A stretch of DNA of 64,000 nucleotides from Chthonomonadia bacterium. GTDB taxonomy: Bacteria; Armatimonadota; HRBIN16. Each line of letters begins with the position of its first letter. The stretch's first letter is position 1. Under the pieces are notes generated by a model. That model made no database searches. It saw only the letters and a program-made list of their open reading frames with translations, and was not told the DNA's origin. The stretch is from NCBI GenBank assembly GCA_013314755.1, contig JABUFA010000001.1, positions 23,594 to 87,593 on the forward strand. Direction: 5' to 3'. This document shows positions 26,630 to 56,549 of the stretch, in pieces. The position numbers were made by a program, and so were the translations under genes.

Positions 26630-26830
26630 GGTTTTTGAACGACGGCTCGGCGGGAGCCTCGCCCTTCAGGGATGAAGAACCCCTCTCCCGACCTCTCCCC
26701 GACGCGGGGAGAGGTGAATCTCCCCTTCCCTCGCAGGGAATGGGCTGGGGGATAGGTCCCGTCCTTGAACCCCTCTCCCGACCTCTCCCCGACGCGGGGA
26801 GAGGTGATGCGCCCTGCGAGTTAGACTTCC
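26630..26830. repeat. Mosaic REP-like hairpin repeat cluster (two identical 41-bp units at 26677-26717 and 26767-26807, each containing palindrome CCTCTCCCCgacgcGGGGAGAGG)
   Basis: Direct read. Same units recur at 49.9-50.05 kb and 56.37-56.47 kb. Also contains CCTTCCCTcgcAGGGAAtGG, which is shared with 52.05 kb. Confidence 0.85.
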
Positions 26831-26893
26831 CTTAAACTCCGTTCCTCCTGCACATCGGGTATACTAGTACCAACCTACCTGAAGGAGAGCGCT

Positions 26894-27148
26894 ATGTGTC
26901 TGGCGATACCGGGACAGATATTGAGCATATCCGGCGATGACCCCCTTACCCGCACGGGCAGGGTGAGCTTTGGAGGCATCGTGAAAGAGGTCAACCTGGC
27001 TTATGTGCCCGAAGCGAAGGTGGGTGACTACGTGATTGTGCACGTGGGGTTTGCCATCAGCATTGTGGACGAGAAGGAAGCACAGGAGGTCTTCGAATAC
27101 CTGCGCCAGATGGAAGAACTGGGCGAACTGCAGGAGCAGGCAACATGA
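26894..27148 (+). CDS. hypC: [NiFe]-hydrogenase maturation factor HypC
   Basis: 84 aa beginning MCLAIP, the invariant HypC N-terminus. Confidence 0.9.
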
Positions 27149-28245
27149 GGTTTATCGAGGAGTACCGCGACCCCGAATCCGCCAAACGCCTTGCGGAAGC
27201 CATCCACAAAACCGTCACCCGCCCATGGACAATCATGGAAATCTGCGGTGGGCAGACGCACGCCATCATGAAGTTCGGCATCGATGAGCTCCTGCCGCCC
27301 CAGATAACGCTGTTACACGGTCCGGGCTGTCCGGTGTGTGTAACTCCCGTGGAGCTGATTGATAAAGCAGTGGAGCTGGCGTCGCGCCCGGAGGTCATTT
27401 TCTGTTCCTTTGGGGACATGCTGCGCGTGCCGGGCACGAGCAAGGACCTGCTTTCCGTGAAGGCAGAGGGTGGGGATGTGCGCATCGTGTACTCGCCCTT
27501 GGACGCCCTGCAGCTGGCAATCAAAAACCCCGACCGACAGGTGGTCTTCTTTGCGGTGGGCTTCGAGACGACTGCGCCCGCCAACGCGATGGCGGTCTAT
27601 CAGGCGAAGCAGAAAGGGGTGCAGAACTTCTCTATTCTGGTCTCGCATGTGCTGGTTCCCCCTGCGATTGAAGCCATCCTGCGTTCCCCCACCTGCCGTG
27701 TACAGGGCTTTCTGGCAGCAGGGCATGTCTGCACCGTCATGGGCTACACCGAGTACGAGCCGATTGCGCAACGGTATCATGTGCCCATCGTGGTCACGGG
27801 TTTTGAACCGCTGGACATCCTGCAGGGCGTGTACATGTGCGTGAGGCAGCTGGAGGAGGGGCGAGCGGAGGTGGAAAATCAGTATGTGCGCTCCGTACGG
27901 CGTGAGGGTAACCGCCCGGCGCAGGAGCTGATTCGCGAGGTGTTCGAGGTCGTTCCGCGCAAGTGGCGAGGCATCGGCGAGATACCGCAAAGCGGGCTGG
28001 GCTTGCGCGAGCCGTATCAGCAGTTCGACGCCGAAAGACGCTTTGCCCTGAGCACAGGCAGTGTGGAAGAGGCTTCAGAGTGCATCAGCGGCCTGGTTCT
28101 TCAAGGAGTCAAAAAGCCACCCGAGTGTCCCGCTTTCGGCACGCGCTGCACCCCCGAACACCCGTTAGGCGCAACGATGGTCTCTTCGGAAGGCGCGTGC
28201 GCCGCCTACTTCAAATACCGGCGAGGCGTTCAGGCAGCGCGTTGA
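27145..28245 (+). CDS. hypD: [NiFe]-hydrogenase maturation factor HypD
   Basis: CGxH, GPGCPVC and FxPxH-type HypD motifs ([24 protein letters not shown]). Confidence 0.9.
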
Positions 28246-29969
28246 ACCCCTGCCAGATGGTCGTCAAACGTCCGCACGAACTCTCGCCCGCAAGCCATCA
28301 GCTGATGCAGTAGCTGGGGTTCTGGCTGGCTGTGCAGCTGTTCGCACAGCGCATGGAACCGCGCATGACACTCTGCAGATGTCTCAAGATACGGGCACGC
28401 CGGCACGGCGCTTTGCTGAGCCTGTTCCAGCCACACGCGAAACCGACAACCCTCTTCCGTCGGCACGTCCAGCGGCGTACGTCCCGCCACAAACGCTTTC
28501 GCCCGCCGCGTCATCTGCAGGTGGTCGTAAACAATCTGGCTGATGACCTGCTGGATAGCGTAGCCGCCGTGGTCGTGTATGGCGTTCTGCACACGCTCCT
28601 GCCACACTTCCGGGGCGATTTCGGTAATCAGCACGCCTGCCTCCTGCGCGTGGGTAGCACGGTTCCGCCCGTTGCGCTTGGAAACATACAGCGACTGGTC
28701 CGCCTCTTCCACCAGCGACTCGGGGTTCAGGGTGTGCAGGGCAACGCTGGCAACTCCAAGGCTGACCGTAATCGGTTGATAACAGCAGGGGGTGCTTTCC
28801 ACCGCCCGCCGGACCTGCTCGGCAAAGCCCATCGCCTGTGTGGCGTCCAGACCGGGTAAGATGACCGTGAACTCCTCGCCGCCATAACGTGCGCAGAAAA
28901 ACTCCTCGCCGCACTGCTCAAGCAGGACATGCGCCACTTTGCGAAGCACCTCGTCGCCCGCCTGGTGACCGAAGGTATCGTTGAACCGCTTGAAATGGTC
29001 AACGTCCAGCAGGATAAGGGAGAGGGGTGCATCCTGCTCCAGCGACCAGAGGAACTCGCGCCACAGTCGCTGGCGAAAAACCCGATGGTTTGGCAGTCCG
29101 GTCATCGCATCGGTCGCTGCCATCATCTCCAGCTCGGCGTTAACCTGCGCCAGCCGCTGGGTGAGCTGCTGAAGGTTTTCGTTTTGCGCCTCCAGCTCCT
29201 CGCGCTGTGCCTCGATAATTTCCTCCTGCTGTTTCCGAGCGGTGATGTCCACATTCGCGCTGATCGCTCTCCAAACCGCTCCACTGGGGTCGACAAGCGG
29301 AAAGGTGCTGCACAGCACCCATCTCTCCTCGCCGTCTCTGGTGCGGTCTTTCCACTCGATATTGCGCACAGCACGCCCCGAAAAGACCTCTTCAATTACC
29401 TGCCGGGTGCGCGGGGCATCTTCGGGGCGGCAGATGAGATCGTAAACACTGCGTCCGATGGCTTCTTCGGCGCGGTAACCGTAAAGGCGCTCCGCCTCCC
29501 GGTTCCACTCGTGCACCACGCCGTCGCGGTCGTAGGTGAAGCAGGCGACGGACATCTCCTGGAACAGCTGCGTCATGTAGCTGAGGGCTCGCTCCTGCTC
29601 GCGCAGGGCGGTCTGTAACTGCTCCGTGCGCTCCGCGACCAGGTCCTCCAGGTGCTGGCTGTAGCGGCGCAGCTTCGCGGTTGTGTTCTGAGCCAGCCAC
29701 ACCGTCAACACCACGAACACACTGCCGAACAGAAACACCTGCGAGACTATCGCCTGCAGCCAGTTGATATGGTCTGCCAGTATCGCCCAGATGCTGAACA
29801 GATACCCCAGCAGGAAAAAGGTCATCAGCACCATCAGAATCCTCAACAGGGTGCAATACCCGGCTGCTTGCACCGCCTGGCGCATCCCCCAGGCGCGGCG
29901 GATGGAAACAAACATCAGCCCTGCGCCAATGCTGATACCGATAACGTCTATGAGCTCTTTAAAAGACAT
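28230..29969 (-). CDS. Membrane-anchored sensor diguanylate cyclase: TM - coiled coil - PAS - GGDEF (GGEEF) - C-terminal CZB-like zinc-binding domain
   Basis: GGDEF domain with RYGGEEF and the DxLTGL-like motif [11 protein letters not shown] segment ([32 protein letters not shown]). The C-terminal YDHLQM...[12 protein letters not shown]...C...H...H..C resembles the chemoreceptor zinc-binding (CZB) motif; this is a domain call from memory. Confidence 0.75.
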
Positions 29970-30128
29970 ACTGTATGCACCTCTTCCGGACCGGCAGGAG
30001 ATATATCTTGCGTTCTATAGCACAACACCTCGTTAATAATAATCGGTATCACATAGTGGAGGCTGAAGGGCAGGATAAGGGCGAGACGGCGCGGAAATAG
30101 CATATACGTAAATCTGGGAGGCACACGG

Positions 30129-31193
30129 GTGGACCAGCAGATGGCGTCCGATAGTTTTGCTCTTTCCTGTCCCATCCCCATCCAGCAATATCCAGCAATC
30201 GTGATGGCTCATGGCGGGGGCGGCAGGCTGATGCATCAGCTGATTGAAAAGATGTTTGTTGCCACCTTTGCCAGCAGTGCCCTGAGCCAGCGACACGACA
30301 GCGCACAGATGGAACTGCCCGCGGGACGCCTCGCCTTCACCACCGACTCCTATGTGGTGCGTCCGCTCTTCTTTCCGGGCGGAGACATTGGCAAGCTGGC
30401 GGTATACGGCACGGTCAACGACCTCGCGATGAGCGGCGCACGTCCCCTGTACCTCAGCCTAGGCATGATTCTGGAAGAGGGTCTGCCGATGGAGACGCTG
30501 TGGCAGGTGGTGCTCTCTATCGCGCAGGCGGTGCGGAAAACGGGCGTGCAGATTGTCACCGGCGATACGAAGGTGGTGGACCGGGGCAAAGGTGATGGCA
30601 TCTTCCTGAACACGTCGGGCGTGGGCGTGATAGAACACGACCTGACCATCGCACCACAGGCGGTGCGGGCGGGCGATGCGGTCATCCTCAGCGGCGACAT
30701 CGGGCGCCACGGCATCGCGGTGATGGCGGTGCGTGAAGGGCTGGAGTTTGAAAGCGCCATTGAAAGCGACTGCGCGCCTCTGGCGGAGCCGGTGCTGGCG
30801 CTGATTGGGGAAGGCATAGAGGTACGCTGTCTGCGCGACCTCACGCGCGGCGGTCTGGCAAGTGCGGTCGTTGAGATTGCCGAGGCGGCGAGGGTGCAGA
30901 TACTGCTGGAAGAGGCGCGCATCCCCGTGCGCGAAGACGTGCGCGGCGCCTGCGAGATACTCGGTTTTGACCCCCTCTATGTCGCCAACGAGGGGCGATT
31001 CGTGGCGTTCGTGCCGGCGGAACAGGCAGAACGGGCGGTGCAAACACTGAGGCGGTTCCCTGCGTGCGAGGGGGCGACGGTGGTGGGGGAGGTCAGCCGC
31101 GCCGACGAAGGGACGGTTATCCTGCGCAGCGTCATCGGCACGTCGCGCGTGGTGGACATGCTCAGCGGCGAACAGTTACCCCGGATATGTTGA
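30129..31193 (+). CDS. hypE: [NiFe]-hydrogenase maturation factor HypE (carbamoyl dehydratase)
   Basis: PurM-like fold motifs, an N-terminal CPIP motif and the C-terminal invariant …PRIC cysteine tail. Confidence 0.9.
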
Positions 31194-31219
31194 GGCAACA
31201 ACACAAAAGGAGGAACGCG

Positions 31220-32827
31220 ATGGAACAACGCTTTAGGGATTTTTTAGAAAATCATGTGAACGAAGTGCGCCCGCTGGCGCGAGAGACCGCGCTGGCGTGG
31301 TGGGAAGCGAACGTGACGGGTAGCGAAGAGGCGTTTGAACGCGCTGCGCTACTGCAGGCGCAGATGATGAAAATATACGCCCGCGAACACGAGTACCGTT
31401 TCCTGCAGGAAATCCCAAACGACAGCCTGTCCGACCCCCTGCTCCGCCGACAGCACAAGCTTCTGCTGGATGAATATCGCGGTCACCAGATGTCCGAAAA
31501 GACCATCGACGAAATCGTCCAGCGTGAGAAGGAGATTGAGAAGGAGTACAACACCTATCGCGCCCTGTTCCGCGGCCAGCGCGTCAGCGACAACGCCCTG
31601 CGTGACATCCTGCAAAAGAGCACTGACAGCGAAGAACGACGCGAGGCATGGGAAGCCAGCAAACAGATTGGCGAGCGGGTAGCAGACGCGGTGCGCGAAC
31701 TGGTGCGCATTCGCAACCGCGAGGCGCGACGGCTGGGCTTTCGCGACTACTACGCCATGCAGCTGGAACTGCAGGAGCTGGACGAAATGCGCCTGTTCAA
31801 CCTGCTGGAAGAACTGCATCAGCTGAGCAACGCCCCCTTCCAGCGGTACAAGCAAAAGCTGGACGCACGCCTTGCGGAGCGATTTGGCATCGCGGTAGAT
31901 GACCTGCGCCCCTGGCACTACACCGACCCCTTCTTCCAAAGCCCTCCGCCGGGCGAGGTGGACCTGAACCCGCTGTTTGAGGACAAGGACATCGAGGCGA
32001 TTTCCCGGCAGTTCTACGCAGCCGTCGGGCTACCAGTAGAGCCGATTCTGGAGCGGAGTGACCTCTACGAGCGCGAAGGCAAGAGTCAGCACGCCTTCTG
32101 CATCGATATCGACCGCGAGGGCGACGTACGCATCCTGTGTAACCTGCGCCCCAGCGAGCGCTGGATGGGCACGATGCTCCATGAACTGGGACATGCGGTG
32201 TACGACTACTACATCGACCGTTCCCTGCCGTATCTGCTTCGCACGCCGGCGCACACCCTCAGCACCGAAGCCATCGCGATGCTGTTCGGCAGGATGCACC
32301 GCAACGCCTCGTGGCTCCAGCGATACGCAGGCGTCCCCGCCGAGCAGGCGCAGGCGGTCGCACGCCCCGCTATCGAGGAGATGCAGGCATCGCTCATCGT
32401 CTTCACCCGATGGGTGCTGGTGATGACGCACTTCGAAAGAGCCATGTACGCCGACCCCGACAGCGACCTGAACAGCCTGTGGTGGCAGCTCGTGGAGAAG
32501 TACCAGTGGCTGACCAAACCCGAAGGGCGCAATGCCCCAGACTGGTGCGCGAAGGTACACATTGCGCTGGCGCCCGTGTACTACCAGAACTACATCCTGG
32601 GCGAGATGGAAGCGTCGCAGCTGGTGCATGTCCTGCGCACGAAGGTGCTGGCGGGAGAGCCGAGGGACGCCATCGTGTACAGCCCAAAGGTAGGCGAGTT
32701 TCTGAAGGAGAAGGTGTTCTCCACCGGAGCCACGCTCCCGTGGGAGGAGGCTCTGCAATATGCCACCGGCGAAAGGCTGAACCCGGCGTACTTTGTGGCG
32801 CAGATGGAAGCAGAAGAGCCGATTTAG
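31220..32827 (+). CDS. Zinc metallopeptidase, M2/M32-like (ACE-like / carboxypeptidase Taq-like) HEXXH enzyme
   Basis: HEXXH in GTMLHELGHAVYDYY. The N-terminal region ALAWWEANVTGSEEAFERAA resembles the M2/M32 N-terminal helices. AAGGAGG RBS before ATG 31220. Exact family not resolved. Confidence 0.55.
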   Translation: MEQRFRDFLENHVNEVRPLARETALAWWEANVTGSEEAFERAALLQAQMMKIYAREHEYRFLQEIPNDSLSDPLLRRQHKLLLDEYRGHQMSEKTIDEIVQREKEIEKEYNTYRALFRGQRVSDNALRDILQKSTDSEERREAWEASKQIGERVADAVRELVRIRNREARRLGFRDYYAMQLELQELDEMRLFNLLEELHQLSNAPFQRYKQKLDARLAERFGIAVDDLRPWHYTDPFFQSPPPGEVDLNPLFEDKDIEAISRQFYAAVGLPVEPILERSDLYEREGKSQHAFCIDIDREGDVRILCNLRPSERWMGTMLHELGHAVYDYYIDRSLPYLLRTPAHTLSTEAIAMLFGRMHRNASWLQRYAGVPAEQAQAVARPAIEEMQASLIVFTRWVLVMTHFERAMYADPDSDLNSLWWQLVEKYQWLTKPEGRNAPDWCAKVHIALAPVYYQNYILGEMEASQLVHVLRTKVLAGEPRDAIVYSPKVGEFLKEKVFSTGATLPWEEALQYATGERLNPAYFVAQMEAEEPI

Positions 32828-32971
32828 TACCCCACCTATTCCATATCTCTGGAGGGCGAGCGGAGAATGGTCTGGGTATCCACCTCGTCCTCCAGAAGCA
32901 CAGTGGTTTGCAGGTATCTTCCCGTACCTCGGCGAATACGAAAGGTGACTTCACACATCAGTGACCTGACC

Positions 32972-34297: not shown

Positions 34298-34318
34298 GGA
34301 GAAGGCGGTGACTATTGA

Positions 34319-35104: not shown

Positions 35105-35163
35105 AAACCCCTCTCCCAGCGGACTGAGAGAGGGGCAGAGGGTGAGTGGCTGAGGACAATCGT

Positions 35164-35957
35164 TCAGTCTTTCCACAGCAGGGCGCCGCGATAGCCACCC
35201 TGGCAGTATACCGGATACGATTCATCCGCCCAGAAGTTGCGATCGGACTTGGCGTGGCCGTCGGCGAACACGAAGTTAATCGCGCCCACAGGCTTTTCGG
35301 CAGGTCCCGTCACGTGGTGCACCGGGCGCCCGTACAGCCATCCACTGTTTGGCAACGAAACGCACCAGAATGGACCCTCGCCATTGACCGTGATGCCGTA
35401 GAACGATGCCCACATTTGGGTGACGGTGTCCGCAAAAATAGCGACGGACGCAGGTGAGCCGATTGCCCCAAGCGTGCGCGGCGTGCACTGGTTGCCGATG
35501 ATGTACTCATTGAAGCCGTAGGTGATGCAGTAGTCCGGCAGCTGTCCGTTAGCCTCCACGTAGTTTGCCATGTAGTATCGGCAGTTGCCAGCCATCGGGC
35601 ACCAGGGACACGCACTCTCGGTTACTCCCGCGCCGATGCTGGGACACTGGAACAGCCCCTTGCTCTTCACGTAGGGCATCAGCAGTGCCGTCCACAGCAC
35701 GTTGGGCTGGTCGGGATTACTGCACCAGGGCGCGCCTCCCGGACCGCCGGGCCAGGGGTTCCACACGAAGGTCTCGTCGTAGTCCTGGATGTACATGTTG
35801 TGCGCCAGACCTATCTGCTTGGTGTTGGACAGACAACCGGTCATGCGCGCCTTCTCCCGTGCCTGAGCGAACACGGGGAACAGAATCGCCGCCAGGATAG
35901 CAATTATCGCTATCACGACGAGCAACTCGATAAGCGTAAAGCCGTTGCGTTTCATGA
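35164..35957 (-). CDS. Prepilin-type N-terminal cleavage/methylation domain protein, H-X9-DG (DUF1559) family
   Basis: Internal start [37 protein letters not shown] with GGAGGG RBS, and a C-terminal [10 protein letters not shown]9-DG motif. The ORF-track N-terminal extension (TTG at 36096) is unlikely. Start coordinate approximate. Confidence 0.75.
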
Positions 35958-35968
35958 TGTTACCCTCC

Positions 35969-37087
35969 TCATGATTTTGTATGCGTCTCACCCGCGGCAT
36001 GGTCACATGAATCGCGTACGACCAGTTCCACGGGCAGATACTCCACACTACTCTGCTCTTCAGTGGATGAGCGCATGGTCGAAAGCAATCGTTCAATCGC
36101 CCGCTCTCCCATGCGGTACAGCGGTTGGCGCACCACCGTTAGCGGTGGCTGTAGATGCGCTGCCGAAGGCGGGTCATCAAAGCTCACGATGCTCACATCC
36201 TGGGGCACACGCAGACGCAGGGTGCGTATCAGCCCCAGCACATCCAGGGTCAGGTAGTAGCCCGCGCAAAAGATGGCGGTAATCGGCTCGCGGCGCAACA
36301 GCAGGGAGGTTAGATGCCGGCGTGACGCCTCGTCCATTTGCCAGTTTGAGCGTGCCCGAACAACCCAGTCGTCCTCCACCGGGATACCATGCTCGTCCAT
36401 CGCCTGCAGATAGCCGTGCAGACGGTCACGGCAGTTGGTGGCAGAGTCTTTGCCGTTCACATAGGCGATGCGCCGATGTCCCAGCCGGAAAAGGTAGCTG
36501 ACCGCCATCCGCGCCCCGCCGATATTGTCGCTGTCCACACAGGCGAAAGGCGCTTCCTTCCACGACGCGCCCAGCACCACAAAAGGAACGCCCCTGGCAA
36601 ACAGACGATACAGCGTATCATACCCCTGCTCGTCCGGGATCAGAAAGAGAAAGCCCGCGTCGGGATATGCCTGAACCAGATGCTCGTAGCCGTCATAGTG
36701 GGCGGCTTCCACTACCAGCGCGAAGCCGTTCGCGCTTGCCCGGTCACGAAATGCATGGAAGGGCCAGCGCAGGTAGGTATCTTCCTCTAGATGGTCAGCA
36801 AATGGAGGCACCATCACCACCGTCGGGCGAGCGACCGTATGTGTCGACGGCTTTCTGTGCTGTACATAAGTGCCCGACCCCACCCGCCGTACCAGCACGC
36901 CTGCCCGCACCAGCTCCTGAATGGCGCGGTTGACCGTCATCTGGCTCACGCCGAACTGGCGGGCGATGGCGCGCTCGCTAGGGATGCGTTCTCCTTCGCG
37001 CACCTTGCGCTGGGCGATGAGCTGTTCGATATGTCTCTGGATGCGCTGATAGCGCGGTTCGGATACGGGCATGAGAACCCTCGCCAT
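35969..37087 (-). CDS. AraR-like hybrid transcriptional regulator (GntR-type wHTH N-terminus + LacI/PBP-type sugar-binding C-terminus)
   Basis: N-terminal [12 protein letters not shown]...[28 protein letters not shown] is a GntR HTH. The remaining ~290 aa resembles a LacI-family periplasmic-binding-fold effector domain. Divergent from the GH116 gene. Confidence 0.65.
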
Positions 37088-46752: not shown

Positions 46753-46847
46753 TTTCTTCCTCCGATAGGAAGAGCCTCCACGAATCGGGATGTAAAGGGA
46801 GTCCCCGTACCGGCAACAAGATACGAGGACTCCTCTTCCGCCTGCCG

Positions 46848-47648
46848 TTACATATCAGGACTCAGGAGGTGGGTAGAGACGTAATCCTGAGCCTCTGCTT
46901 CAGAGTTCGCCATGTACCAGTTATCCCAGGGGTTGACCAATAACGGATAGTTATCCGTTAGGTTCCACATCAGGCGAGGGCGTACGGTCTGGCTGGACCT
47001 CAATGCTTTTGCGTGTCCATCTACGAATGTCCAGTTGATGGTCCCGCCGTGTGTTCGCAGAGGATACCAGGTGTATCCGATGTACCACAGCCCAGCATCG
47101 AAGAGCTCGAAGGGCAGCTCTACGATGATTATCTTAGACGCAGGCTCTTGGATACCGGCAAGGGCGAAGGCGTTTTGTCCACTACCGTATGTCCAGCCGA
47201 ACACGTACGCGTTCATCGCGTAGCCTTTGGGGCGGGTGACTGTGCCCCAACCTCCGGTACGTCCAACAGCCTCGTCTGGACGGGAAGGACAGACAAAGAT
47301 CTGGTGGTTTTTCACATAGGGCATCAACAGGTCGTACCAAATGATGAGGTCGACGCCCCAGTCACTTCGTCGTCCAACCCAGCGGTCATAGTTGGGCATA
47401 GGCAACATTTCGTCGTAGTCCTGCGTGTACATCACCATGCCAAGCCCAAGCTGCTTCATGTTCGAGAGACAAGCGGACTTTCTGGCTTGTTCGCGTGCAC
47501 GTGCGAACACCGGGAACAGAATCGCTGCCAGTATCGCGATTATCGCGATAACCACCAGCAATTCGATCAGGGTAAAAGCTGTGGCCGTGCGTCTCACTGG
47601 TTTTTTCCCTCCTTCGTTCGTCCGAGTTTTTGAGCGTTTCTGCCACAC
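46848..47648 (-). CDS. Prepilin-type N-terminal cleavage/methylation domain protein, H-X9-DG (DUF1559) family
   Basis: [35 protein letters not shown]-terminus and C-terminal FVDGHAKAL. Exact start uncertain. Confidence 0.7.
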
Positions 47649-48840: not shown

Positions 48841-49269
48841 ATTGTATTGGAAAATACAACGACTTATAGGAAAATCGTTTTGGCAAATTCAATTGTATCC
48901 TAAACTCTTCTCTATGTCAAGGGATTAGTGTGATGTTTTCCCAAAAAATCAGTAAAAGGCTTGGTGGAAATCGACCGGAATGCTCGGTTAGTAATCTCAG
49001 GTATACTTTGTGGGCTAATTTCGATGTATGCCGAGAACGCTGGTAATGACTAAGCTCGACCGTTTTCGGTGTGGACTGGTCGGAGAATGCATCCGCCGAT
49101 TTGAAAAACAGGGTTTGCAGTGGATGCAGCGTTTCGTCTCCTTTGGCTGGTTGACGCCTCTTTCCAAGCGTGGTTATCGGCTATGTGTGATGCTGGGGTG
49201 TCTGGCGGCGTTTTCGGCGCGTGCTTCGCGTGCACCTGCGAGGAGCCGTCGTTCGAAGGTAGAGGCGGC

Positions 49270-49680
49270 GTTAGACGGGATAGTGGCGGTTCATGCGAAG
49301 ATGGATGCTCAGGGGCATGAGGATAGGTTGCTGGTGGTATTGGGTGTTAGGTTTGAGTGGCCGGCGTGTGTGAGGTGTGGGGAGAAGTGTTCGTTTGGTG
49401 TCATGTTGGTGGAGTGGGAGTGTTCGTTGGCAGACTGGGGATCGGTGTCGTGTTCTGGGCATGCAGGTATGGAATGCGTTTGGTGAGGGATTTGGCACGG
49501 TTTGTGTGCGTGAAGGGGCGAGTTGGGTAGAAATGGCTGAAGGATTAGTGGCTTGGCTGGTGGAGGCTAAAGAGGGGATTGCGGTGTTCTTGGGTAGATT
49601 TCTGGGGGTTTGAATGGTTATGATAGATGATGAAGCAAGGCTTTGGGGGGATCGTGGGGGCGGTGTTCAGCTAAAAGTTC
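49270..49680. other. Strongly GT-skewed, C-depleted non-coding tract (~400 bp)
   Basis: The plus strand is almost devoid of C over ~400 nt in an otherwise ~60% GC genome. Overlapping ORFs encode improbable W/G/V-rich or P/H/T-rich peptides. Confidence 0.6.
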
Positions 49681-49689
49681 AAAAGTCGG

Positions 49690-50095
49690 GACATCTCCCG
49701 CGAGGAGAGGGAAAAACAGATCGGCGGAAGCCTTGCCCTCCAAGGGATGCTGTAGGGGCAACCCTCTGTGGTTGCCCTCTCCAATGCCGAACAGCCCCAC
49801 CTGAACTCACCGAAGGCGGAAAGGGACTGTCCCCCTGCTTGCGAGGGGACAACACGGGGGCTTACCATACCGCAAGAAAGCCCCTCCTAACCTCCCCGCA
49901 GGCAGGGAGGAACCCCTCTCCCGCCCTCTCCCCGACGCGGGGAGAGGAGTGTCGAAAGAAGCCCTCACCCTGACCCTCTCCCACGAGGAGAGGGCAACAC
50001 GGGGTAAAACCCCTCTCCCAGCCTCTCCCCGACGCGGGGAGAGGTGATGCGCCCCTGAACGGAAAGATTTTTCCGAGAAATCTCTCCCGAACACC
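49690..50095. repeat. Dense array of REP-like hairpin repeats (at least 5 distinct palindromic units)
   Basis: Contains GGGCAACCctctgtGGTTGCCC, GTCCCCctgcttgcgaGGGGAC, CCTCCCcgcaggcaGGGAGG, CCCTCTCCCacgagGAGAGGG and two CCTCTCCCCgacgcGGGGAGAGG units. A 95-bp composite (49950-50045) is repeated inverted at 56372-56465. Confidence 0.85.
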
Positions 50096-50211
50096 CCAAA
50101 ATCTATTGACTCTGATAAACATACCTGCTATACCATATCTGAAACAGGTAGCACAGCTCCCGCAGTCGGTTTGGGAGAGCCAAAACACTTGCTGATTGAG
50201 GGTGCTGAAAA

Positions 50212-51111
50212 GTGTGGCATTGCCTCTCTGTCAGCGCAGATTCCATATCTCTTGCAGTCTCTTCCACGAAGGACGGGGCAAGAGCAGCCCCTGTCACTCC
50301 CTTCGTTGACCATAACCCCTCTCTTGTCTGGTCGGTTGTTTCGGCTGAAATCCTTGCTGAGGGCAACGTGCAGATAGCGTATGAGTATGGGTATGGGTTT
50401 GACGGCGGTCGTCGCTGGCGGAAGGACTACCTGAATGGGGTGTGGACTCGGTATCCGTGCGGTGTGGCGTGCGGTGCTGGGGAGCTGGTGGAGCAGCAGA
50501 AGCCGCTGGAGGGAGGCAGCTGGACAACGAGTGCGCTGTATTTGCAGGGCATTTCGCTGGTTCGGCGAAACAGTGAGTGGCATCACTTTGACCCGTTCGG
50601 CACAGCTGGAGTGATAACCAACGGGAGTGGTCAGGTGGTGAGCAACAACCTGTATGACCTGTTTGGTGTCATCAGATATGAGCAGGGCAGCGCGCAGACG
50701 CCGTGGAGGTGGATATGGTTTCGTACCAGTGAGGAAGACCTGCTGACAGTAAGTAGAGTTCTCACTCAGCCGGAACGTGACCTTGCTCTTTCGAGGCCGG
50801 CGCTCGTACCGCTAGGAGCGGGTGGAATAATAGGAGGGATGCTTTGCCTGCTGGCGTGTGCGTGGGTTGGGACTGGTGTTCATGAGTACTGGAACGACTG
50901 TCAACGCGAGTGCAGCAGCATGGATAATCCTGTTCGGTGCATGCCTAATTGCTTGATAACAAAAACATGCCAGAGTGCAATTGACACAGTGGCATGTATT
51001 GGATGCGGTGCATGTATCTGTTTGGTTCCTGTAGTCCGTCCTCTGTGTGTAAAGGTGGGCAGAGCAGCTATACGCATATGGGTGAAGCTTAGGGATATTC
51101 TACGAGAATGA
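50212..51111 (+). CDS. N-terminally truncated Rhs/YD-repeat C-terminal fragment with degenerate core end and Cys-rich hydrophobic tip
   Basis: Contains EWHHFDPFGTAGVITNGSGQVVSNNLYDLFGV, which matches the Rhs core signature YYHxDHLGSxxLLTDxxGxxVWxxxYDPFGE at most positions. A degraded RYYDP…DPIGLAGG-like segment follows (RVLTQPERDLALSRPALVPLGAGGI). The tip is C-rich with a TM stretch. There is no N-terminal Rhs body upstream. Lower GC than surroundings. Confidence 0.5.
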   Translation: MWHCLSVSADSISLAVSSTKDGARAAPVTPFVDHNPSLVWSVVSAEILAEGNVQIAYEYGYGFDGGRRWRKDYLNGVWTRYPCGVACGAGELVEQQKPLEGGSWTTSALYLQGISLVRRNSEWHHFDPFGTAGVITNGSGQVVSNNLYDLFGVIRYEQGSAQTPWRWIWFRTSEEDLLTVSRVLTQPERDLALSRPALVPLGAGGIIGGMLCLLACAWVGTGVHEYWNDCQRECSSMDNPVRCMPNCLITKTCQSAIDTVACIGCGACICLVPVVRPLCVKVGRAAIRIWVKLRDILRE

Positions 51112-51118
51112 GGGGGGC

Positions 51119-51688
51119 TTGATGATGCTTCGCCTAGGATGGAGGGATACCTTTGCAGCAGTGTGCTTTGTGCTAATATACGTGTTGTCCCCGCCGTCCA
51201 AGCAGCTGTATTCTCGGCTCGGAACGTGGCCTGTATCGGAGTATTTCTCTATCGCCTTCGCTTTGGCGGTCGGGTTCACCTTTCGTTACTTCCACACGCG
51301 CTGGTCGCCAGAATGGCAAAGCAAAGTGGGAATGGGGCTATTAGTGCTCGCAGGCTTGGGAGCAGCAGGTGGCGACTTTGTCATCTCGGCTGCTATAGCT
51401 TGGTCGGCTTCGCTGGTCTTACTTTTTCGAGCAGTCTTTCGCGACGACAGCGAGGCGCGGTGGGCGGCGCCTATCATGTTTTTCGGTTTTTGGGCAGTGA
51501 TACTGTGTGCGATACTTGTGCACCTCGGTGGAATGAATGCGCTGGGCAGTGCGTTCGCAGTCGCATGGGCGCTGTTTATCATTGGTCTCTACATGCAAGC
51601 AGGTAATGGCGGGGACAAATTGCAAGAACCGCAGGGGCATCCTGTGCTGTTAGCGTTTCATGGGCTTCTGTTTATTGCCGCATTGTGA
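51119..51688 (+). CDS. Polytopic membrane protein (hypothetical; candidate immunity protein of the adjacent Rhs-like tip)
   Basis: 189 aa with 5-6 predicted TM helices. Starts 8 nt after the Rhs-fragment stop. No motif recognised. Confidence 0.45.
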   Translation: MMMLRLGWRDTFAAVCFVLIYVLSPPSKQLYSRLGTWPVSEYFSIAFALAVGFTFRYFHTRWSPEWQSKVGMGLLVLAGLGAAGGDFVISAAIAWSASLVLLFRAVFRDDSEARWAAPIMFFGFWAVILCAILVHLGGMNALGSAFAVAWALFIIGLYMQAGNGGDKLQEPQGHPVLLAFHGLLFIAAL

Positions 51689-52050
51689 TGGACAGGTACA
51701 GGGCTTTATGAAGCTTTGCGGTCTTGCGCTCGTGAAGCGGTATGCCAGACATTGCCCAACGCTCTGGAGGGCGCGCGCTGCGAATTGCGTTGCTTCCTTC
51801 AGCAGTTTTTCCAGTACTTTCTTTTAGATGTTATAGCCCTGCTCATTGTAGTGGGGTATGTTGTAGCGTTGGCTTCTTCTGTGCGGCGTCGCTGGGTTTC
51901 TGGGGCTTCGCAAGGCAATTCACTATAGCTCCGTCAAGCCTGAATCTTGGTGGTATAGATACTCCACGCAACGGTATTTGCGGTTCATTATCTTTCACCT
52001 CTAACAGTAAGCATAACACAAAGATGAAAAGTTCCACACCCTAGGCATCG

Positions 52051-52121
52051 CTCTCCTTCCCTCGCAGGGAAGGGGCTGGGGGTTAGGTTCAAACGGCTCG
52101 GCAGGAGCCTTGCCCTCCATC
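52051..52121. repeat. REP-like repeat copy (CCTTCCCTcgcAGGGAAGG + GGCTCGGCAGGAGCCTTGCCCTCC modules)
   Basis: Modules shared with 26.64-26.76 kb and 49.72 kb, in a different order. Confidence 0.8.
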
Positions 52122-52325
52122 AAATGTTGACAGTTACAACTCTTTCTTGCGATAATAAGACATCCTGATAGTATCGGAAAACCTGCCATGTCGCGCCGGG
52201 AGCGGATATATCGCTTCTTCCTTCACCATGGGTGCACACCGCAGCGATGGTGCTGACGACGAGTATACACAAACGACGCCCCGAACGGGGATGTGGAGGT
52301 TGCACAGGGTGTGGAGGTGATTGAG

Positions 52326-52904
52326 ATGCGAAGACCGCTGGCTTTTACACTGGTGGAGATACTGGTGGTGCTGGCGATTATCGCTGTGCTGGCGGCGCTA
52401 ACCATCAGCGGGGTGCAGTATGCCACTAAATACGCGCATCGTAGCACATGTATCAGCAATCTGCGCCAGCTGGTGACCGCGCTGAAGATGTATGACCAGA
52501 ACTGGGGAGGACCGCCGCCGTTATTGGTGGCGCACAACACTTGGGACAAGGTTCAGCCGGAGATTAAACCGGTCCTGCTCTGTCCTGCCGATTTCTCCAA
52601 GGGGGAGTTGCTTCCCGGCACTCTTAAACCCAAGCATGGTAAGTGGGTGCACAGTTCTTACAGTCCGTTCTACTTCATGAACGAGCTGGACTGTTCGGGC
52701 AGGCTTGACCAGCCCAGTTGGGCGCCGCTTCCTGATGCGGAGCGGATTTGGTTCATCTGTCGCTGGCATGCCCCTCATCCCTGGCTGTACGCCTATGCGG
52801 ACGGGCATGTGGAGTGGGCGAACGAGTTTTTACCCGGTCAGTCCGAGGGAAGAACTGCGCAGTATATCAGGCGACTAAAAGAGGTATGCCCGAACAAGCC
52901 ATGA
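52326..52904 (+). CDS. Short prepilin-type N-terminal cleavage/methylation domain protein
   Basis: MRRPLAFTLVEILVVLAIIAVLAAL class III signal and a degenerate C-terminal ADGHVEW motif. Confidence 0.6.
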   Translation: MRRPLAFTLVEILVVLAIIAVLAALTISGVQYATKYAHRSTCISNLRQLVTALKMYDQNWGGPPPLLVAHNTWDKVQPEIKPVLLCPADFSKGELLPGTLKPKHGKWVHSSYSPFYFMNELDCSGRLDQPSWAPLPDAERIWFICRWHAPHPWLYAYADGHVEWANEFLPGQSEGRTAQYIRRLKEVCPNKP

Positions 52905-52950
52905 TAGGTTCCTTTACCCCAACAATCTACCGGAGAAGGAGGGAGGCAAA

Positions 52951-53433
52951 ATGACTTCCAGAGTTCACAGACTGGTCGCAGTGTGGGTTGTGCTTGCCGG
53001 GCTGGCAGTCTGGGTTACTGCCACCAATGCCGGGCAGGGAGGAGGTCCAAGCTGGGGCACGTTGGCGCCGCAATATTTTGGCGACGCCTGTCAAAGCACC
53101 TGCCCACCCCCGGACGAGTGTTCGCTTCGCTGGATTAGAACGCGTTCTCAGAACTGTTGCATCTGGGACTGGGGATGCTGGCTCAATCCGTCGGAGCCGA
53201 ACTATCAAATCAAGCCATGCCAGCGGGATGAGTGGGAGTGCGTCTGGCTACCTGCTCCTCTTCCGCCTGCGCCGCCCAGCGGTGGGAGGTCATCAAACGC
53301 GAGCGTTGCCAACAACGATTCTGCGCTGGTTCCTCAGACACCCCCCGTTATTCGCTGCTGTCAGGAGGCTTACCAATGCCAGGAGGTAGACGGAAATCCC
53401 TGTTGCGACCCGGTAAATGCGCTGTGTCCATGA
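52951..53433 (+). CDS. Cysteine-rich small secreted protein (hypothetical)
   Basis: Signal peptide (cleavage near TATNA). The ~135-aa mature region has 14 Cys including CC and CxxC pairs. AGGAGGGAGG RBS. Ends at a hairpin/T-tract terminator. Confidence 0.5.
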   Translation: MTSRVHRLVAVWVVLAGLAVWVTATNAGQGGGPSWGTLAPQYFGDACQSTCPPPDECSLRWIRTRSQNCCIWDWGCWLNPSEPNYQIKPCQRDEWECVWLPAPLPPAPPSGGRSSNASVANNDSALVPQTPPVIRCCQEAYQCQEVDGNPCCDPVNALCP

Positions 53434-53486
53434 GAGCCATGGGTCGGTAAGTGAACCTAAGGTTTTCCATCTTTGCTGTTTGGGAA

Positions 53487-53527
53487 GGGCGGTTCTGTGC
53501 AAGAGCAGGACCGCCCCTCATTTTGTC
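53487..53527 (+). terminator. Bidirectional terminator hairpin between Cys-rich gene (+) and clpB (-)
   Basis: Stem GGGCGGTTCTG / CAGGACCGCCC (one mismatch) followed on the plus strand by CTCATTTTGTCT. Confidence 0.55.
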
Positions 53528-53616
53528 TAAACTCGAGTTCTCTCGTTTCTTCCCATATCTTTTTGAGCTTTTGCAGTATGGTTGCCCCCTGTGTTCCGAT
53601 GGCGGTTATCCGCGTG

Positions 53617-56223
53617 TTACCCCACCACTTCTGCCTGCACGCGCCTGGTGAACACCAGCTCACCGTTCTGGGCGTCCACCACGATATGGTCGCCCTCGGC
53701 GAACTCGCCAGCCAGCAGTTTGGTGGCGATGGTGTCCATCACGCGCTTCTGCAGGACGCGCTTCAGCGGTCGCGCACCATACACGGGGTCAAAGCCCTCC
53801 GCCGCCAGCACTTCCTTCGCTGCGTCGGTGACCGTCAGCTGGATGTGTTTGTCCTCCAGTCGCTTCTGCAGGAGGCGAATCTGGATGTCCACAATCTGCT
53901 TAATCTCGTTCACCGACAGCGGATTGAACACGATAATCTCGTCGATGCGGTTCAGGAACTCGGGGCGGAAGTGTGCCCGCACCGCGTCCATCACCTGCAT
54001 CCGCGCCTCCTGCATGTCCAGGAAGGCGTTCTCGGCAAGGAAGTGCGAACCGATGTTGGAGGTCATAATCAACACGGTGTTCTTGAAGTCCACCGTGCGA
54101 CCTTTGCCATCGGTCAGGCGACCGTCGTCCAGCACCTGCAGGAGCACGTTGAACACCTCCGGGTGCGCCTTTTCAATCTCGTCCAGCAGGATGACGCTGT
54201 ACGGACGCCGGCGCACCGCTTCGGTAAGCTGTCCGCCCTCTTCGTAGCCCACATAGCCGGGCGGGGCGCCAATCAGCCGTGCCACCGAGTGCTTCTCCAT
54301 GTACTCCGACATGTCGATGCGGATCATCGCCCGCTCGTCGTCGAACAGGAACTCGGCTAAGGCGCGCGCCAGCTCGGTCTTACCGACGCCGGTCGGTCCC
54401 AGGAACATGAACGAGCCGATGGGTCGGTTCGGGTCCTGCAAGCCGGCACGTGCCCGACGCACGGCGTTCGCCACCGCCTGAATCGCGTGGTCCTGTCCAA
54501 CCACGCGCTGGCGCAACCGCTCCTCCATGTGCAGGAGCTTCTGCATCTCGCCTTCCATCAGGCGCGAGACGGGAATGCCCGTCCACTTGCTGACCACCTC
54601 AGCGATGTCGTCGGCGTCGACCTCCTCTTTCAGCAGTTTCATGTGCTTCTGCAGTTCCTCCAGACGCTTCGTTTCGGCGTCCAGCTGCTTCTGTAGGGAG
54701 AGGATGACGCCGTAGCGCAGTTCCGCCGCTCTGGCGAGGTCGCCTTCACGCTCCGCAGCCTGCTCCTGCAGGCGCGCCTGCTCGATCTGCTCCTTGATAC
54801 TGCGGATGCGCGAGATAATCTCCTTCTCCTGCTGCCAGTGTGCCTTCAGGCGGTTGCTCTCCTCGCGCAGGTTGGCGATTTCCGCCTCCAGCTTCTCCAG
54901 TCGCTCCTTGCTGGCAGGGTCATCCTCCTTGCGCAGAGCCTCGCGCTCGATCTCCAACTGGCGGATGCGCCGCTCGATTTCGTCGATTTCGGTGGGCATG
55001 GAGTCGATCTCCATGCGCAGGCGCGATGCCGCCTCGTCAATCAGGTCAATCGCCTTGTCGGGTAGGAAGCGGTCGGCAATGTAACGATGCGAAAGAGTCG
55101 CCGCTGCCACGATGGCGCTGTCGGTGATGCGCACGCCGTGGTGCACCTCGTATCGCTCCTTCAGCCCGCGCAGGATGGCGATGGTGTCCTCCACATCAGG
55201 CTCACTGACCAGAATGGGCTGGAAGCGTCGCTCCAGCGCAGGGTCCTTCTCAATATGTTTGCGATACTCGTCCAGCGTGGTGGCGCCCACACAGCGCAGC
55301 TCACCTCGCGCCAGCATCGGCTTCAGCATGTTCGCGGCGTCAATGGCGCCTTCCGCTGCGCCCGCGCCCACCAGCGTGTGCAGTTCGTCAATGAAGACGA
55401 TAATCTGCCCCTCGGCGGACTGAATCTCGCGCAGAACCGCCTTCAGACGGTCTTCGAACTCGCCGCGATACTTGGTGCCTGCCACCAGCGCGCCCAGGTC
55501 CAGCTGCCAGACGCGCTTGTTCTTGAGACCTTCGGGCACGTCGCCCGCCACGATGCGCTGTGCCAGCCCTTCTACGATGGCGGTCTTGCCGACGCCCGGT
55601 TCGCCGATAAGCACCGGGTTGTTCTTGGTTCGCCGCGACAGCACCTGTATCACGCGCCGGATTTCGTCGTCGCGCCCGATGACGGGGTCCAGCTTGCCTT
55701 TGCGGGCGAGGTCGGTCAGGTCGCGTCCGTACCGCTCCAGCGCCTGGTATTTCTCTTCCGGGTTCTGGTCGGTGACGCGATGCCCGCCGCGAATCTCCAT
55801 CAACGCCTGATACAGGCTATCCGGCGTCACGCCTGCCTGTTTCAGCAGTCGACCCGCCGCGCCCTGCGTGTCCTGCACCAGCGCCATCAGCAGGTGCTCG
55901 GTGCTGACGTACTCGTCCTTCAGGCGCTCTGCCTCTTCAAAGGCTTTGTCCATCACCTGCTTGAAGCGCGGCGTGATGTACGACGCGACCGATGCGCCGT
56001 GTACCTGTGGCAGTTTCTTCAGTTCCGCCTCCACATACCGGCGCAGAACGGGCAGTTGCACGCCCAGCTTCTGCAGAACGGTCGGCACGATGCTTTCGGT
56101 CTGGTCAATGAGTGCCAGCAAGAGATGTTCGGCGTCGATGTTTTGATGATTCATGCGCTCAGCGATGCTTTGTGCGTTCTGCACCGCCTCCTGAGCGCGG
56201 ATGGTCAATTTATCCAATCGCAT
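53617..56223 (-). CDS. clpB: Chaperone ClpB (Hsp104-type AAA+ disaggregase)
   Basis: 868 aa with two AAA+ modules ([15 protein letters not shown]; [15 protein letters not shown]) and a long coiled-coil middle domain. Confidence 0.95.
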
Positions 56224-56265
56224 GGTCTACCCTCCTGCGTATGATATTCTCGTTTTCTCACCTGT

Positions 56266-56295
56266 ATTATACCACTTGATATTACTATTATCAAG
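56266..56295 (-). promoter_or_regulatory. Consensus sigma70-type promoter of clpB (TTGATA-17-TATAAT) overlapped by HAIR-like inverted repeat CTTGATA-N7-TATCAAG (candidate HspR operator)
   Basis: Read directly: -10 at 56266-56271, -35 at 56289-56294, 17-bp spacer. The palindrome 56275-56295 differs from the HAIR consensus CTTGAGT-N7-ACTCAAG at 2 positions per half-site. Confidence 0.6.
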
Positions 56296-56371
56296 TCTTT
56301 TGCGCACTATATTAGAAAATATTTGATAGTGAAAGGCGGCTAATATCCAGCCTTTCCCTGCAAGGGAACGA

Positions 56372-56465
56372 GAGCCTCACCTCTCCCCGCGTCGGGGAGA
56401 GGCCGGGAGAGGGGTTTTCCGTGTTTCCCTCTCCTTGTGGGAGAGGGTCAGGGTGAGGGCTTCTC
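56372..56465. repeat. REP-like composite repeat, inverted copy of 49950-50045
   Basis: The reverse complement matches GCCCTCACCCTGACCCTCTCCCAC(G/A)AGGAGAGGG…CCCCTCTCCC.GCCTCTCCCCGACGCGGGGAGAGGTGA with few substitutions. Confidence 0.85.
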
Positions 56466-56549
56466 CTGCAGGTAGGGCTGTTCCACAAAGGACTCCCCCT
56501 GCAAACCGCGTATACGAATGTAAAACGCGCTATCGTGAAGGAGGCTCCG

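Follow-up and report, generated by a model that had tools for sequence, protein, structure and literature searches.

Knowledge of repeats of the BoxC/PIT/triplex-motif (TM) class dates back to the early 1990s; their folding into a triplex has been shown in vitro, and they have been linked to genome instability. The BoxC and PIT elements were reportedly described by Bergler (1992) and by Hoyne and Maher (2000–2002), and to our knowledge the origin of the class, its mechanism of spreading, and a partner protein have not been found to date. Here, we describe four loci of short palindromic modules in a 64,000-nucleotide stretch of DNA from a Chthonomonadia bacterium of the phylum Armatimonadota (contig JABUFA010000001.1, positions 23,594 to 87,593). 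The whole stretch is called the window, and coordinates are counted from its first nucleotide. The loci, at 26.63–26.83, 49.69–50.09, 52.05–52.12, and 56.37–56.47 kb, had been noticed in an earlier reading based on the letters alone (the sequence-only reading). The palindromes quoted there are present at these positions, all four loci are real, and all units in the window are intergenic. The loci are mosaic clusters of non-coding units of the BoxC/PIT/TM class, accompanied by a hairpin similar to repetitive extragenic palindromes (REPs) with a GTAG foot (module G) and by a further hairpin (module D), and it is probable that the units spread as partners of DUF559 nucleases.

According to passages of Holder et al. 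2015 (PMC4666352), the element named BoxC, then PIT, and then TMECO has the pattern CCCTCNCCC-N3-6-GGGNGAGGG-N3-GGGNGAGGG and is present in 3610 copies in 262 proteobacterial genomes, always intergenic and without strand bias, more frequently upstream than downstream of open reading frames (ORFs). A TMECO oligonucleotide formed a triplex in vitro, as detected by circular dichroism and nuclear magnetic resonance, a demonstration that concerns the E. coli oligonucleotide only (PMC4666352). The same passages state that earlier work in E. coli found no promoter or terminator activity of PIT elements, that TM-bearing loci display excess variability between strains, that no mobility mechanism or partner protein is known for TMECO, and that G/C-rich motifs are also abundant in cyanobacteria (PMC4666352).

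The units in the window resemble BoxC/PIT/TMECO in having a pyrimidine arm, a purine arm, and a mirrored purine segment with class II polarity. Both are intergenic and multi-copy, occur in either orientation and at times as inverted pairs, lack the anatomy of terminators and promoters, and vary in their presence among relatives. In contrast to the published copies from 262 proteobacterial genomes, the host described here belongs to Armatimonadota, no fewer than five stem families (A, B, C, E, and F) are packed in mosaics with other hairpins, and the second loop of module B is TCA, not TTA or CCG. Furthermore, BoxC has no proposed partner gene, whereas units of the type described here bracket DUF559 genes, including ycjD of E. 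coli.

REPs, bacterial interspersed mosaic elements (BIMEs), and REPINs with their REP-associated tyrosine transposase (RAYT), together a REPtron, are also short structured intergenic repeats in mosaic clusters, in which inverted dyads are the likely unit. A single-copy nuclease-type gene is located between repeats of its own type, and the repeat population is smaller where the gene is missing. To this extent, the comparison of the window loci to REP/BIME mosaics as a dispersed, modular, intergenic family was apt. In contrast to REPs, TM units lack the GTAG foot and have a third mirror segment, the gene associated with them encodes a PD-(D/E)XK (Vsr-like) DUF559 protein and not an HUH Y1 transposase, and the window arrays are positioned at gene starts as often as at gene ends. 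The GT[AG]G foot of REPs is absent from A, B, C, E, and F and present in module G (49752–49777) only. Cyanobacterial small dispersed repeats (SDRs) and miniature inverted-repeat transposable elements (MITEs; Elhai et al. 2008, as described in parts of PMC5861425 and PMC3116915) are similar in that structured units of 20–40 nt are nested or adjacent inside larger repeats; the comparison is with the description in these citing papers.

Three-segment architecture and distribution of the units

Units were identified with a TM finder requiring a stem of at least 8 nt, at most one duplex mismatch, at most one mismatch to the triple rule, and loops of 3–9 and 1–6 nt. The window contains 11 TM units, ten of which lie inside the four loci, compared with a mean of 0.03 in 30 dinucleotide-preserving shuffles, and the units are present in both orientations. 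The same families (D3, D8, D12, I5–I8, and I11) were retrieved by a repeat search of the window. In a mismatch-tolerant search, module A (AACCCCTCTCCCGACCTCTCCCCGACGCGGGGAGAGGTGA) was located at 26678, 26768, 49911, and 50008 (+) and inverted at 56377–56416, module B (AGAAGCCCTCACCCTGACCCTCTCCCACGAGGAGAGGGCAACACGG) at 49957–50002 (+) and 56419–56464 (−) and, in part, at 49691, module C at 26720 and 52051 and, weakly matching, at 56352, and module D (AAACGGCTCGGCAGGAGCCTTGCCCTCCA) at 26640, 49714, and 52091. Islands of k-mers (k=11, k=13) were rejected for defining array borders as too noisy in high-GC loci, and the explicit motif finder was used instead. The units and hairpins of the window are the following:

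26640–26668, plus strand: module D, copy 1 (CGACGGCTCGGCGGGAGCCTCGCCCTTCA), hairpin-forming, repeat family D12
26679–26714, minus strand: TM unit A1, minus-strand reading CCTCTCCCC-gcgtc-GGGGAGAGG-tcg-GGAGAGGGG
26722–26756, plus strand: TM unit C1, slightly degenerate, CCCCTTCC..GGAATGGG-ctgg-GGGATAGG
26769–26804, minus strand: TM unit A2, inside which three independent metagenome contigs break
35108–35148, plus strand: isolated degenerate TM unit outside the four loci, CCCCTCTCCC-agcggact-GAGAGAGGGG-cag-AGGGTGAGTG
49691–49711, plus strand: partial B-like hairpin (ACATCTCCCGCGAGGAGAGGG)
49714–49742, plus strand: module D, copy 2
49752–49777, plus strand: module G, REP-like hairpin with a 5' GTAG foot, GTAG-GGGCAACC-ctctgt-GGTTGCCC, also present in the related metagenome-assembled genome (MAG) CAZOGB01
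49823–49861, plus strand: module E, degenerate copy of GTCCCCCC..GGGGGGAC-ta-CAGGGGGG, intact in CAZOGB01
49880–49910, minus strand: TM unit F, CCTCCCTG-cctg-CGGGGAGG-tta-GGAGGGGC
49912–49948, minus strand: TM unit A3
49962–49994, minus strand: TM unit B1, CCCTCTCCt-cgt-GGGAGAGGG-tca-GGGTGAGGG, E. coli BoxC/TMECO pattern with one stem mismatch
50009–50044, minus strand: TM unit A4
52053–52088, plus strand: TM unit C2, CTCCTTCCCT-cgc-AGGGAAGGGG-ctg-GGGGTTAGGT
52091–52119, plus strand: module D, copy 3, 8 nt short of a strong promoter-like site at 52127–52156
56352–56370, strand not assigned: C-like hairpin (CTTTCCCTGCAAGGGAACG), third segment not recognisable
56380–56415, plus strand: TM unit A5, CCTCTCCCC-gcgtc-GGGGAGAGG-ccg-GGAGAGGGG
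56427–56459, plus strand: TM unit B2, CCCTCTCCt-tgt-GGGAGAGGG-tca-GGGTGAGGG; the whole array 56352–56464 is missing from the syntenic relative L095

When read along the minus strand, locus 1 consists of A(+) followed by a C(−)/A(+) dyad, which is formed by C1 and A1 and has the same build as the dyads that flank DUF559 genes in other Armatimonadota. Module D pairs with an inverted partner (TGGAGGGCGAACCTCCCGGTGAGCC) in related MAGs, resulting in long imperfect hairpins. Three metagenome contigs, 99.97–100% identical to the window, all begin at position 26785 inside A2; the sequence is multi-copy, and assemblers therefore break there.

On the G-rich strand, a TM unit is composed of a pyrimidine arm, a loop, a complementary purine arm, 1–6 nt, and a mirror copy of the purine arm in which T may replace A. 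Module A has the build CCTCTCCCC-gcgtc-GGGGAGAGG-ccg-GGAGAGGGG, module B is CCCTCTCCt-tgt-GGGAGAGGG-tca-GGGTGAGGG, module C is CCCCTTCCCT-cgc-AGGGAAGGGG-ctg-GGGGTTAGGT, and module F is CCTCCCtG-cctg-CGGGGAGG-tta-GGAGGGGC, whereas module E, intact in relatives only, is TCCCCCTG-cttg-CGGGGGGA-ctac-AGGGGGGC. The units of the window have the stem, the loops, and an antiparallel-identical third segment with at most one mismatch. The hairpins described by the sequence-only reading are present, and the Watson-Crick hairpin part of A, B, and C has a computed energy of −8.3 to −11.4 kcal/mol as DNA, but the description was incomplete, since every main module has a third, mirror-symmetric segment, as in an intrastrand triplex motif (PMC4666352). 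The three-segment build is the sequence requirement for a putative class II purine-motif triple helix (G·G-C, A·A-T, T·A-T), which would be formed by the G-rich strand when single-stranded.

Because the stems are of low complexity, the window by itself does not separate a mirror copy from a direct repeat that is shifted. From all fetched loci, distinct hairpins whose stems are asymmetric were pooled; 89 of them fit the mirror rule only and four the direct-repeat rule only, and the mirror rule spans 41 different stems. On the basis of the asymmetric stems of many loci, the reading of the third segment as a direct repeat or as part of an alternative hairpin was rejected. The polarity is also uniform, with 250 units of class II (5'-pyrimidine-purine-third-3') and 19 reversed ones in the window, the loci of Armatimonadota and Armatimonadota-like genomes, and the DUF559 loci. 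On the G-rich strand, the purine motif tolerates T in place of A. The same changes would be mismatches if the segments formed another Watson-Crick hairpin, and also if the complementary strand or RNA adopted the pyrimidine motif. Therefore, the constraint appears to act on G-rich single-stranded DNA. Judging from the sequences compared, the three-segment build itself is under constraint, and the validity of the mirror rule over dozens of stems constitutes comparative evidence for it. Rfam covariance models produced no match at the gathering score in the whole window, and matches in the region 49400–50300 were at chance level only.

Module B matches an intergenic repeat, with an identity of 87–92% (BLAST), in 5422 of the complete E. 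coli genomes, which number 5426; the spacer between mrcB and hrpB (mrcB-hrpB) is one of the sites. Units B1 and B2 conform to the TMECO consensus CCCTCNCCC-N3-6-GGGNGAGGG-N3-GGGNGAGGG with one stem mismatch, which is permitted by the published definition, and A, C, E, and F lie outside the consensus and share the architecture alone. The exact 23-nt core of module A was sought in a collection of species-representative genomes and is present in at least 87 stretches (a lower bound) from Nostocales (many), Chloroflexota MAGs, rumen Clostridia, an Archangium MAG, CAZOGB01, and CAKZNX01. With the A core in several phyla and module B in E. coli, the family is not genome-specific, contrary to what had been proposed. 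The BoxC/PIT/TM class is extended to Armatimonadota, with several stem families residing together.

The upstream mirrored segment of A is kept in the A-core hosts, and in Nostocales a C-like unit is next to it. Copies of A from Clostridia have an extra small hairpin inside the second loop and retain both flanking segments. The full set of modules A, B, C, D, E, F, and G is present in CAZOGB01, in arrays of up to six units, and a related MAG contains 57 TM units in 150 kb. CAZOGB01 and CAKZNX01 are annotated as "uncultured bacterium" and were handled as Armatimonadota-like, the former because it has a prepilin-type gene family in common with the window and a DUF559 protein 85% identical to that of a Chthonomonadetes, and the latter because 2.2 kb of it are 76% identical to the window and its O-antigen-ligase orthologues are annotated as Armatimonadota. 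The A core had no exact match among viral contigs. A viral vector was rejected on this ground and because five viral relatives of DUF559 are without TM units.

In Nostocales, the exact A core and the C-like unit are positioned inside an element of roughly 165 nt with inverted ends GGWTGTTTGAAAAGT. These AT-rich ends are missing from the window arrays, which also have no common termini or target-site duplications. The suggested likeness to MITEs is thus limited to the Nostocales carrier element, the only one with inverted termini. In Trichormus sp. NMC-1 (L009:1–1140), GTAGGGTGGGTT REPs lie on both sides of a RAYT-like gene (SNHVHYLL...YIHANP, 255 aa), which adjoins a MITE-like element of roughly 165 nt that has the inverted ends GGWTGTTTGAAAAGT and holds A and C units. 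This RAYT was rejected as a partner of TM units, since its own flanks are the different GTAGGGTGGG REPs.

Association of the units with DUF559 nuclease genes

Clustering of all open frames in the A-core loci identified DUF559 (PF04480; Vsr-like PD-(D/E)XK fold, PDB 3HRL) as the only small gene family common to three phyla, each time with TM units directly upstream. DUF559 loci with TM dyads are L097–L176, L183, L184, L030, L067, L071, and, in E. coli, L177:4041–4828. As an unbiased check, 80 metagenome loci were picked by peptide patterns of the protein only. Their density of TM units per kb is 7.6 over the 100 nt that precede the gene start, 0.07 inside the gene, 6.4 over the first 100 nt beyond the gene end, and 0–0.09 at distances of more than 1 kb. 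A unit ends at most 150 nt before the start codon in 50 of 70 loci (71%), with a median distance of 21 nt. At the stop codon, a unit is present in 30 of 67 loci (45%), and the stop is often inside the third segment, ACCTAACCCC or ACCTATCCCC. The corresponding values for other genes of the same loci are 1/74 (upstream) and 3/84 (stop), or 1–4%, and 7/1440 for random positions. TM units are thus statistically associated with DUF559 genes.

The purine stem is the same on both flanks of the gene in 17 of 23 loci, compared with 35% expected between loci, and the stems differ from locus to locus. A typical cassette has the organization [C-type unit (−)]-spacer-[X-type unit (+)]-gene-[C(−)]-spacer-[X(+)], with the same dyad on both sides. 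The DUF559 genes of Armatimonadota in L183 and L184 also have the same C(−)/X(+) dyad on both flanks. DUF559 proteins have a median length of 126 aa, and the residues D63, E74, D76, and H80 are 99–100% conserved among 69 proteins. The start codon is located about 20 nt after a unit, the third segment of which ends with the Shine-Dalgarno-like ..AGGT. Many of the contigs carrying DUF559 genes are only 1–2 kb long.

The DUF559 gene of E. coli K-12 is ycjD, which adjoins fabI. The fabI/envM region is presumably the place where BoxC was first noticed. A degenerate unit spans the stop codon of ycjD, and a canonical BoxC is positioned 180 nt downstream. A second copy of the terminal ~50 nt of ycjD (GGAGACGGTGCTGGAGAATATTC..GAACCG) follows about 100 nt downstream (L177:4300–4440, K-12); this copy looks like a remnant of a second DUF559 3' end beside BoxC. 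Of the 5426 E. coli genomes, 3378 contain ycjD, in a single copy. Genomes were sampled at even steps down the ranking obtained with a combined BoxC and ycjD query. Those with ycjD (n=37) have a median of 20 BoxC places (range 16–31), and those without it (n=22) have a median of 5.5 (range 2–19; Mann-Whitney p = 8e-10). With the strains assigned to phylogroups, the published copy numbers of the element are 0–2 in B2, 19–30 in A/B1/C, and 6–15 in D/E/F. The per-strain TM copy numbers given by Holder et al. 2015 (PMC4666352) agree with the ycjD contrast. According to passages of Pugh et al. 2026, ycjD is confined to phylogroups A, B1, and C, along with ST69 and ST182, and eefRABCD is at the site elsewhere, a distribution that agrees with the BoxC contrast.

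The identity and anatomy of the repeats and their statistical association with DUF559 are observed, and the catalysis and the copying step are inferred as follows. TM units would be non-autonomous partners of a small nuclease, a stand-alone DUF559 protein (about 126 aa) that has a Vsr-like PD-(D/E)XK fold and is encoded between cognate TM dyads, in the same manner as RAYTs are between REPs. Where DNA is transiently single-stranded or supercoiled, the nuclease may recognise and nick the folded unit, after which units could be copied, deleted, or reshuffled by repair or recombination, and dyads without a gene would be non-autonomous derivatives. More tentatively, BoxC-like repeats and small stand-alone DUF559 nucleases might together represent an unrecognised cross-phylum mobile system, similar to REP/RAYT, in which the nuclease causes hundreds of gene-less units, among them the window arrays and the BoxC elements of E. 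coli, to be copied, lost, and reshuffled, and in which ycjD is the missing partner of BoxC. Titles and passages of the literature on DUF559 and on ycjD contain no connection to these repeats, and as far as these extend, the link appears to be undescribed so far.

Several points weigh against the spread of the units by DUF559 nucleases. A profile search of the six-frame translation found no DUF559 gene or remnant in the 64-kb window, the five viral DUF559 relatives have no TM units, and 29% of the DUF559 loci are without an upstream unit at the thresholds used. E. coli genomes lacking ycjD still have 2–19 BoxC places, and the contrast between genomes with and without ycjD follows phylogroups, which corresponds to few independent events and makes it supportive, not decisive. 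The association could equally reflect a function of the units as expression signals of DUF559 genes, with the ..AGGT end of the third segment resembling a Shine-Dalgarno sequence, or a preference of the gene for landing in TM arrays. A mirror repeat is not producible by simple template switching. We know of no biochemical activity of this DUF559 subfamily. Passages of PMC4666352 report that in vivo footprinting in E. coli detected no stable triplex.

DUF559, a widespread family of unknown function with ycjD as its E. coli member, is a concrete candidate for the missing BoxC enzyme, and its association with the units makes the old question of the nature of BoxC directly testable. If the link is functional, two orphan features would be explained at once, and a second REPtron-like system would exist that is built on a different nuclease fold.

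Gain and loss of units and rival explanations

The window ClpB is 95% identical to a protein annotated as "MAG: Armatimonadota bacterium" and 72–76% identical to other proteins from Armatimonadota and Chthonomonadaceae; exact look-ups of ClpB and P0242 gave no match. In the relative L095, ClpB is 95% identical and has the same divergent neighbour, followed by phosphoenolpyruvate carboxylase. The spacer upstream of clpB is 194 nt long in L095, compared with 311 nt in the window. The whole C'-A-B array is missing, and the promoter and the inverted repeat overlapping it are conserved. Two further relatives with other neighbours retain the promoter and lack the array. Among the genomes with a 94–95% identical ClpB (L093, L094, and L095), the upstream neighbour of clpB is queG, a gene with a bact-PGI_C domain (phosphoglucose-isomerase-type), or the 399-aa ORF of the window. 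The synteny break in this comparison (window 53617–57734) is just upstream of the conserved clpB promoter, at the site of the window array.

Units can also be inserted in a gene. In the CAKZNX01 MAG (L063:1288–1335), one A unit is in frame in an O-antigen-ligase/TPR protein, where it forms part of a loop between two hydrophobic segments (..SSSPDLSPTRGEGQGV..). The same loop of a 71%-identical orthologue (L096:4883–5066) contains four units (A, A, C, and B-like; about 56 residues), and 16 other orthologues have a short loop with no unit. The one-unit loop of L063 has the appearance of the four-unit version after a deletion from the purine arm of its first unit to that of its last. Nine apparent in-ORF arrays were considered in related loci; eight of them are short open frames of at most 250 codons or are in the first ~30 codons of a long one (a probable 5' extension, L061), and that of L063 alone is genuine. 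Rickettsia palindromic elements (attributed to Ogata et al. 2000) are said to be small palindromic repeats inserted in frame in genes. They are similar to the units of L063 and L096 in that a palindromic repeat is tolerated in frame in a protein loop, but they are unrelated in sequence and host, and no window unit lies in a gene.

The absence of the array from relatives and the in-frame insertions indicate that the units are dispensable, inserted, and expanding or contracting, and are not conserved coding sequence. Because they are multi-copy, shared across phyla, gained and lost, devoid of terminator or promoter anatomy, and sometimes in frame in a gene, the units behave as selfish or neutral miniature elements that accumulate where insertion is tolerated, and not as local regulators of hypC, clpB, or other neighbours. 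Since short-read assemblies break at the units, which also give rise to spurious ORFs and to insertions in frame, annotating them improves gene calls in these lineages.

Two rival explanations are unlikely to a similar degree. The units could be ordinary REPs or BIMEs (REPINs) that owe their dispersal to a RAYT (Y1 HUH transposase) with its gene at another place in the genome, and the third segment would be incidental low-complexity sequence. The mosaic clusters are BIME-like, and the A and B hairpins are preceded by CCGA or CTGA on the C-rich strand. Passages of PMC6006769 describe both the canonical 5' GTAG foot of RAYT-type REPs, which module G possesses, and class 3 Y1 genes of Planctomycetes and Acidobacteria that are flanked by atypical structures with a CnGA foot. 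However, the RAYT gene that the sequence-only reading had suggested looking for was not found when the window and about 90 related loci (about 660 kb) were screened for HUH/Y1 protein motifs, except for the Trichormus RAYT with its different GTAGGGTGGG REPs. Furthermore, TM units have no GTAG foot, their mirrored third segment covaries with 41 different stems and hence is not incidental, and the gene consistently located between such units is DUF559 and not a Y1 transposase. Alternatively, the units could be host cis-acting structures (supercoil sinks, topological insulators, or nucleoid-protein sites) that are placed upstream of promoters, in particular between divergent genes, and extrude a hairpin or triplex under negative supercoiling. 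This explanation keeps some plausibility because arrays are found upstream of promoters and in divergent spacers: two of the four window arrays are in divergent spacers, the arrays stop just upstream of promoter-like sites, and in the Armatimonadota and Armatimonadota-like loci divergent spacers hold 7 of 16 classifiable arrays and make up 30 of all 119 spacers. The hairpin parts of A, B, and C are stable as DNA (−8 to −11 kcal/mol), and the E. coli motif is more often upstream than downstream of ORFs, according to passages of PMC4666352. However, three relatives without the array retain both the promoter and the operator of clpB, module content and orientation differ from site to site, units are also present inside a coding gene, and the enrichment in divergent spacers is small and based on few cases. 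The E. coli experiments, as described in passages of PMC4666352, detected neither an effect as promoter or terminator nor, in vivo, a stable triplex.

A role of the loci as transcriptional terminators or insulators had been put forward in the sequence-only reading, and it is very improbable that the units serve at gene ends as rho-independent terminators or as hairpins with a stabilising role at the RNA level. The hairpins are GC-rich, loci 2 and 3 follow the 3' ends of ORFs (49028–49486 and 51742–52044), and one unit overlaps the stop codon in DUF559 cassettes. However, a GC-rich hairpin with a T-run at a gene 3' end, as in an intrinsic terminator, was not found: there is no T-run or T-tract after any unit, and the terminator scan flagged none of them. 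Loci 1 and 4 are between the starts of two divergent genes, both orientations occur within one array, and the mirror rule is conserved even though purine-motif triplexes do not form in RNA, according to passages of PMC4666352. The proposed role also does not fit the position of arrays upstream of predicted promoters or the absence of the clpB-upstream array from a syntenic relative with a conserved promoter. The probability that the loci are chance low-complexity sequence, a degenerate CRISPR array, or real coding repeats is negligible. Polypurine/polypyrimidine sequence does generate ORFs, and units are translated in frame in a membrane-protein loop in two related genomes. The ORF at 26635–26835, for instance, encodes PLSRPLPDAGRGE/D, that is PLSRPLPDAGRG, two times, and the sequence-only reading correctly considered such RPLPDAGRGE peptides spurious. 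A conserved protein-coding repeat was rejected, since the inserted peptide is missing from the 16 orthologues of the host protein, and the window copies are in both orientations and different frames (pair spacing of 90 compared with 97 nt). Chance is countered by the presence of 11 units compared with 0.03 in shuffles. CRISPR is countered, as had been argued before, by the heterogeneity of the units and their irregular spacing (90, 97, and about 23,000 nt), and further by their two orientations and the lack of a regular repeat-spacer structure.

Gene context in the window

Locus 1 is in the divergent spacer between the start of a membrane-protein ORF on the minus strand (26056–26493) and the start of hypC (26894), and locus 4 is in that between the starts of clpB (53617–56223, minus strand) and the ORF 56535–57734. 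Loci 2 and 3 are between co-directional ORFs in a stretch at 49–53 kb with low GC content at third codon positions, locus 2 after the 3' end of ORF 49028–49486 and locus 3 after ORF 51742–52044. Promoter-like sites downstream of the arrays are TTGACA-18-GATAAT at 52127–52156 and TTGATA-17-TATAAT at 56294–56266 (clpB). The near-perfect clpB promoter overlaps the inverted repeat CTTGATAATAGTAATATCAAG (window 56262–56300, minus strand), which is kept in three relatives. The repeat resembles the operator of HspR (HAIR, CTTGAGT-N7-ACTCAAG), a likeness that would point to clpB being under heat-shock control of the HspR type.

The region 49000–53450 has a GC content of 0.54 and low GC at third positions, its ORFs are without a significant Pfam match, and repeat loci 2 and 3 form its borders; it may be an acquired islet. 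Its designation as Rhs-like was not substantiated, as the ORFs at 50212–52044 have no significant Pfam match, and the sole match, HisKA_7TM, is below the cut-off.

Genes with a prepilin-type N-terminal methylation motif form a large paralogous family typical of Armatimonadota and Planctomycetota. In the window, such paralogues are located at 6744–7562, 35164–36096 (−), 46848–47648 (−), and 61820–62770, and also at 25356–26051 (−) and 52293–52904, and they are 75–77% identical over about 180 nt. A tandem duplication (60713–60974 and 61108–61369) of 262 nt with 90% identity and a spacing of 395 nt corresponds to two neighbouring small ORFs on the minus strand (60693–61091 and 61100–61447).

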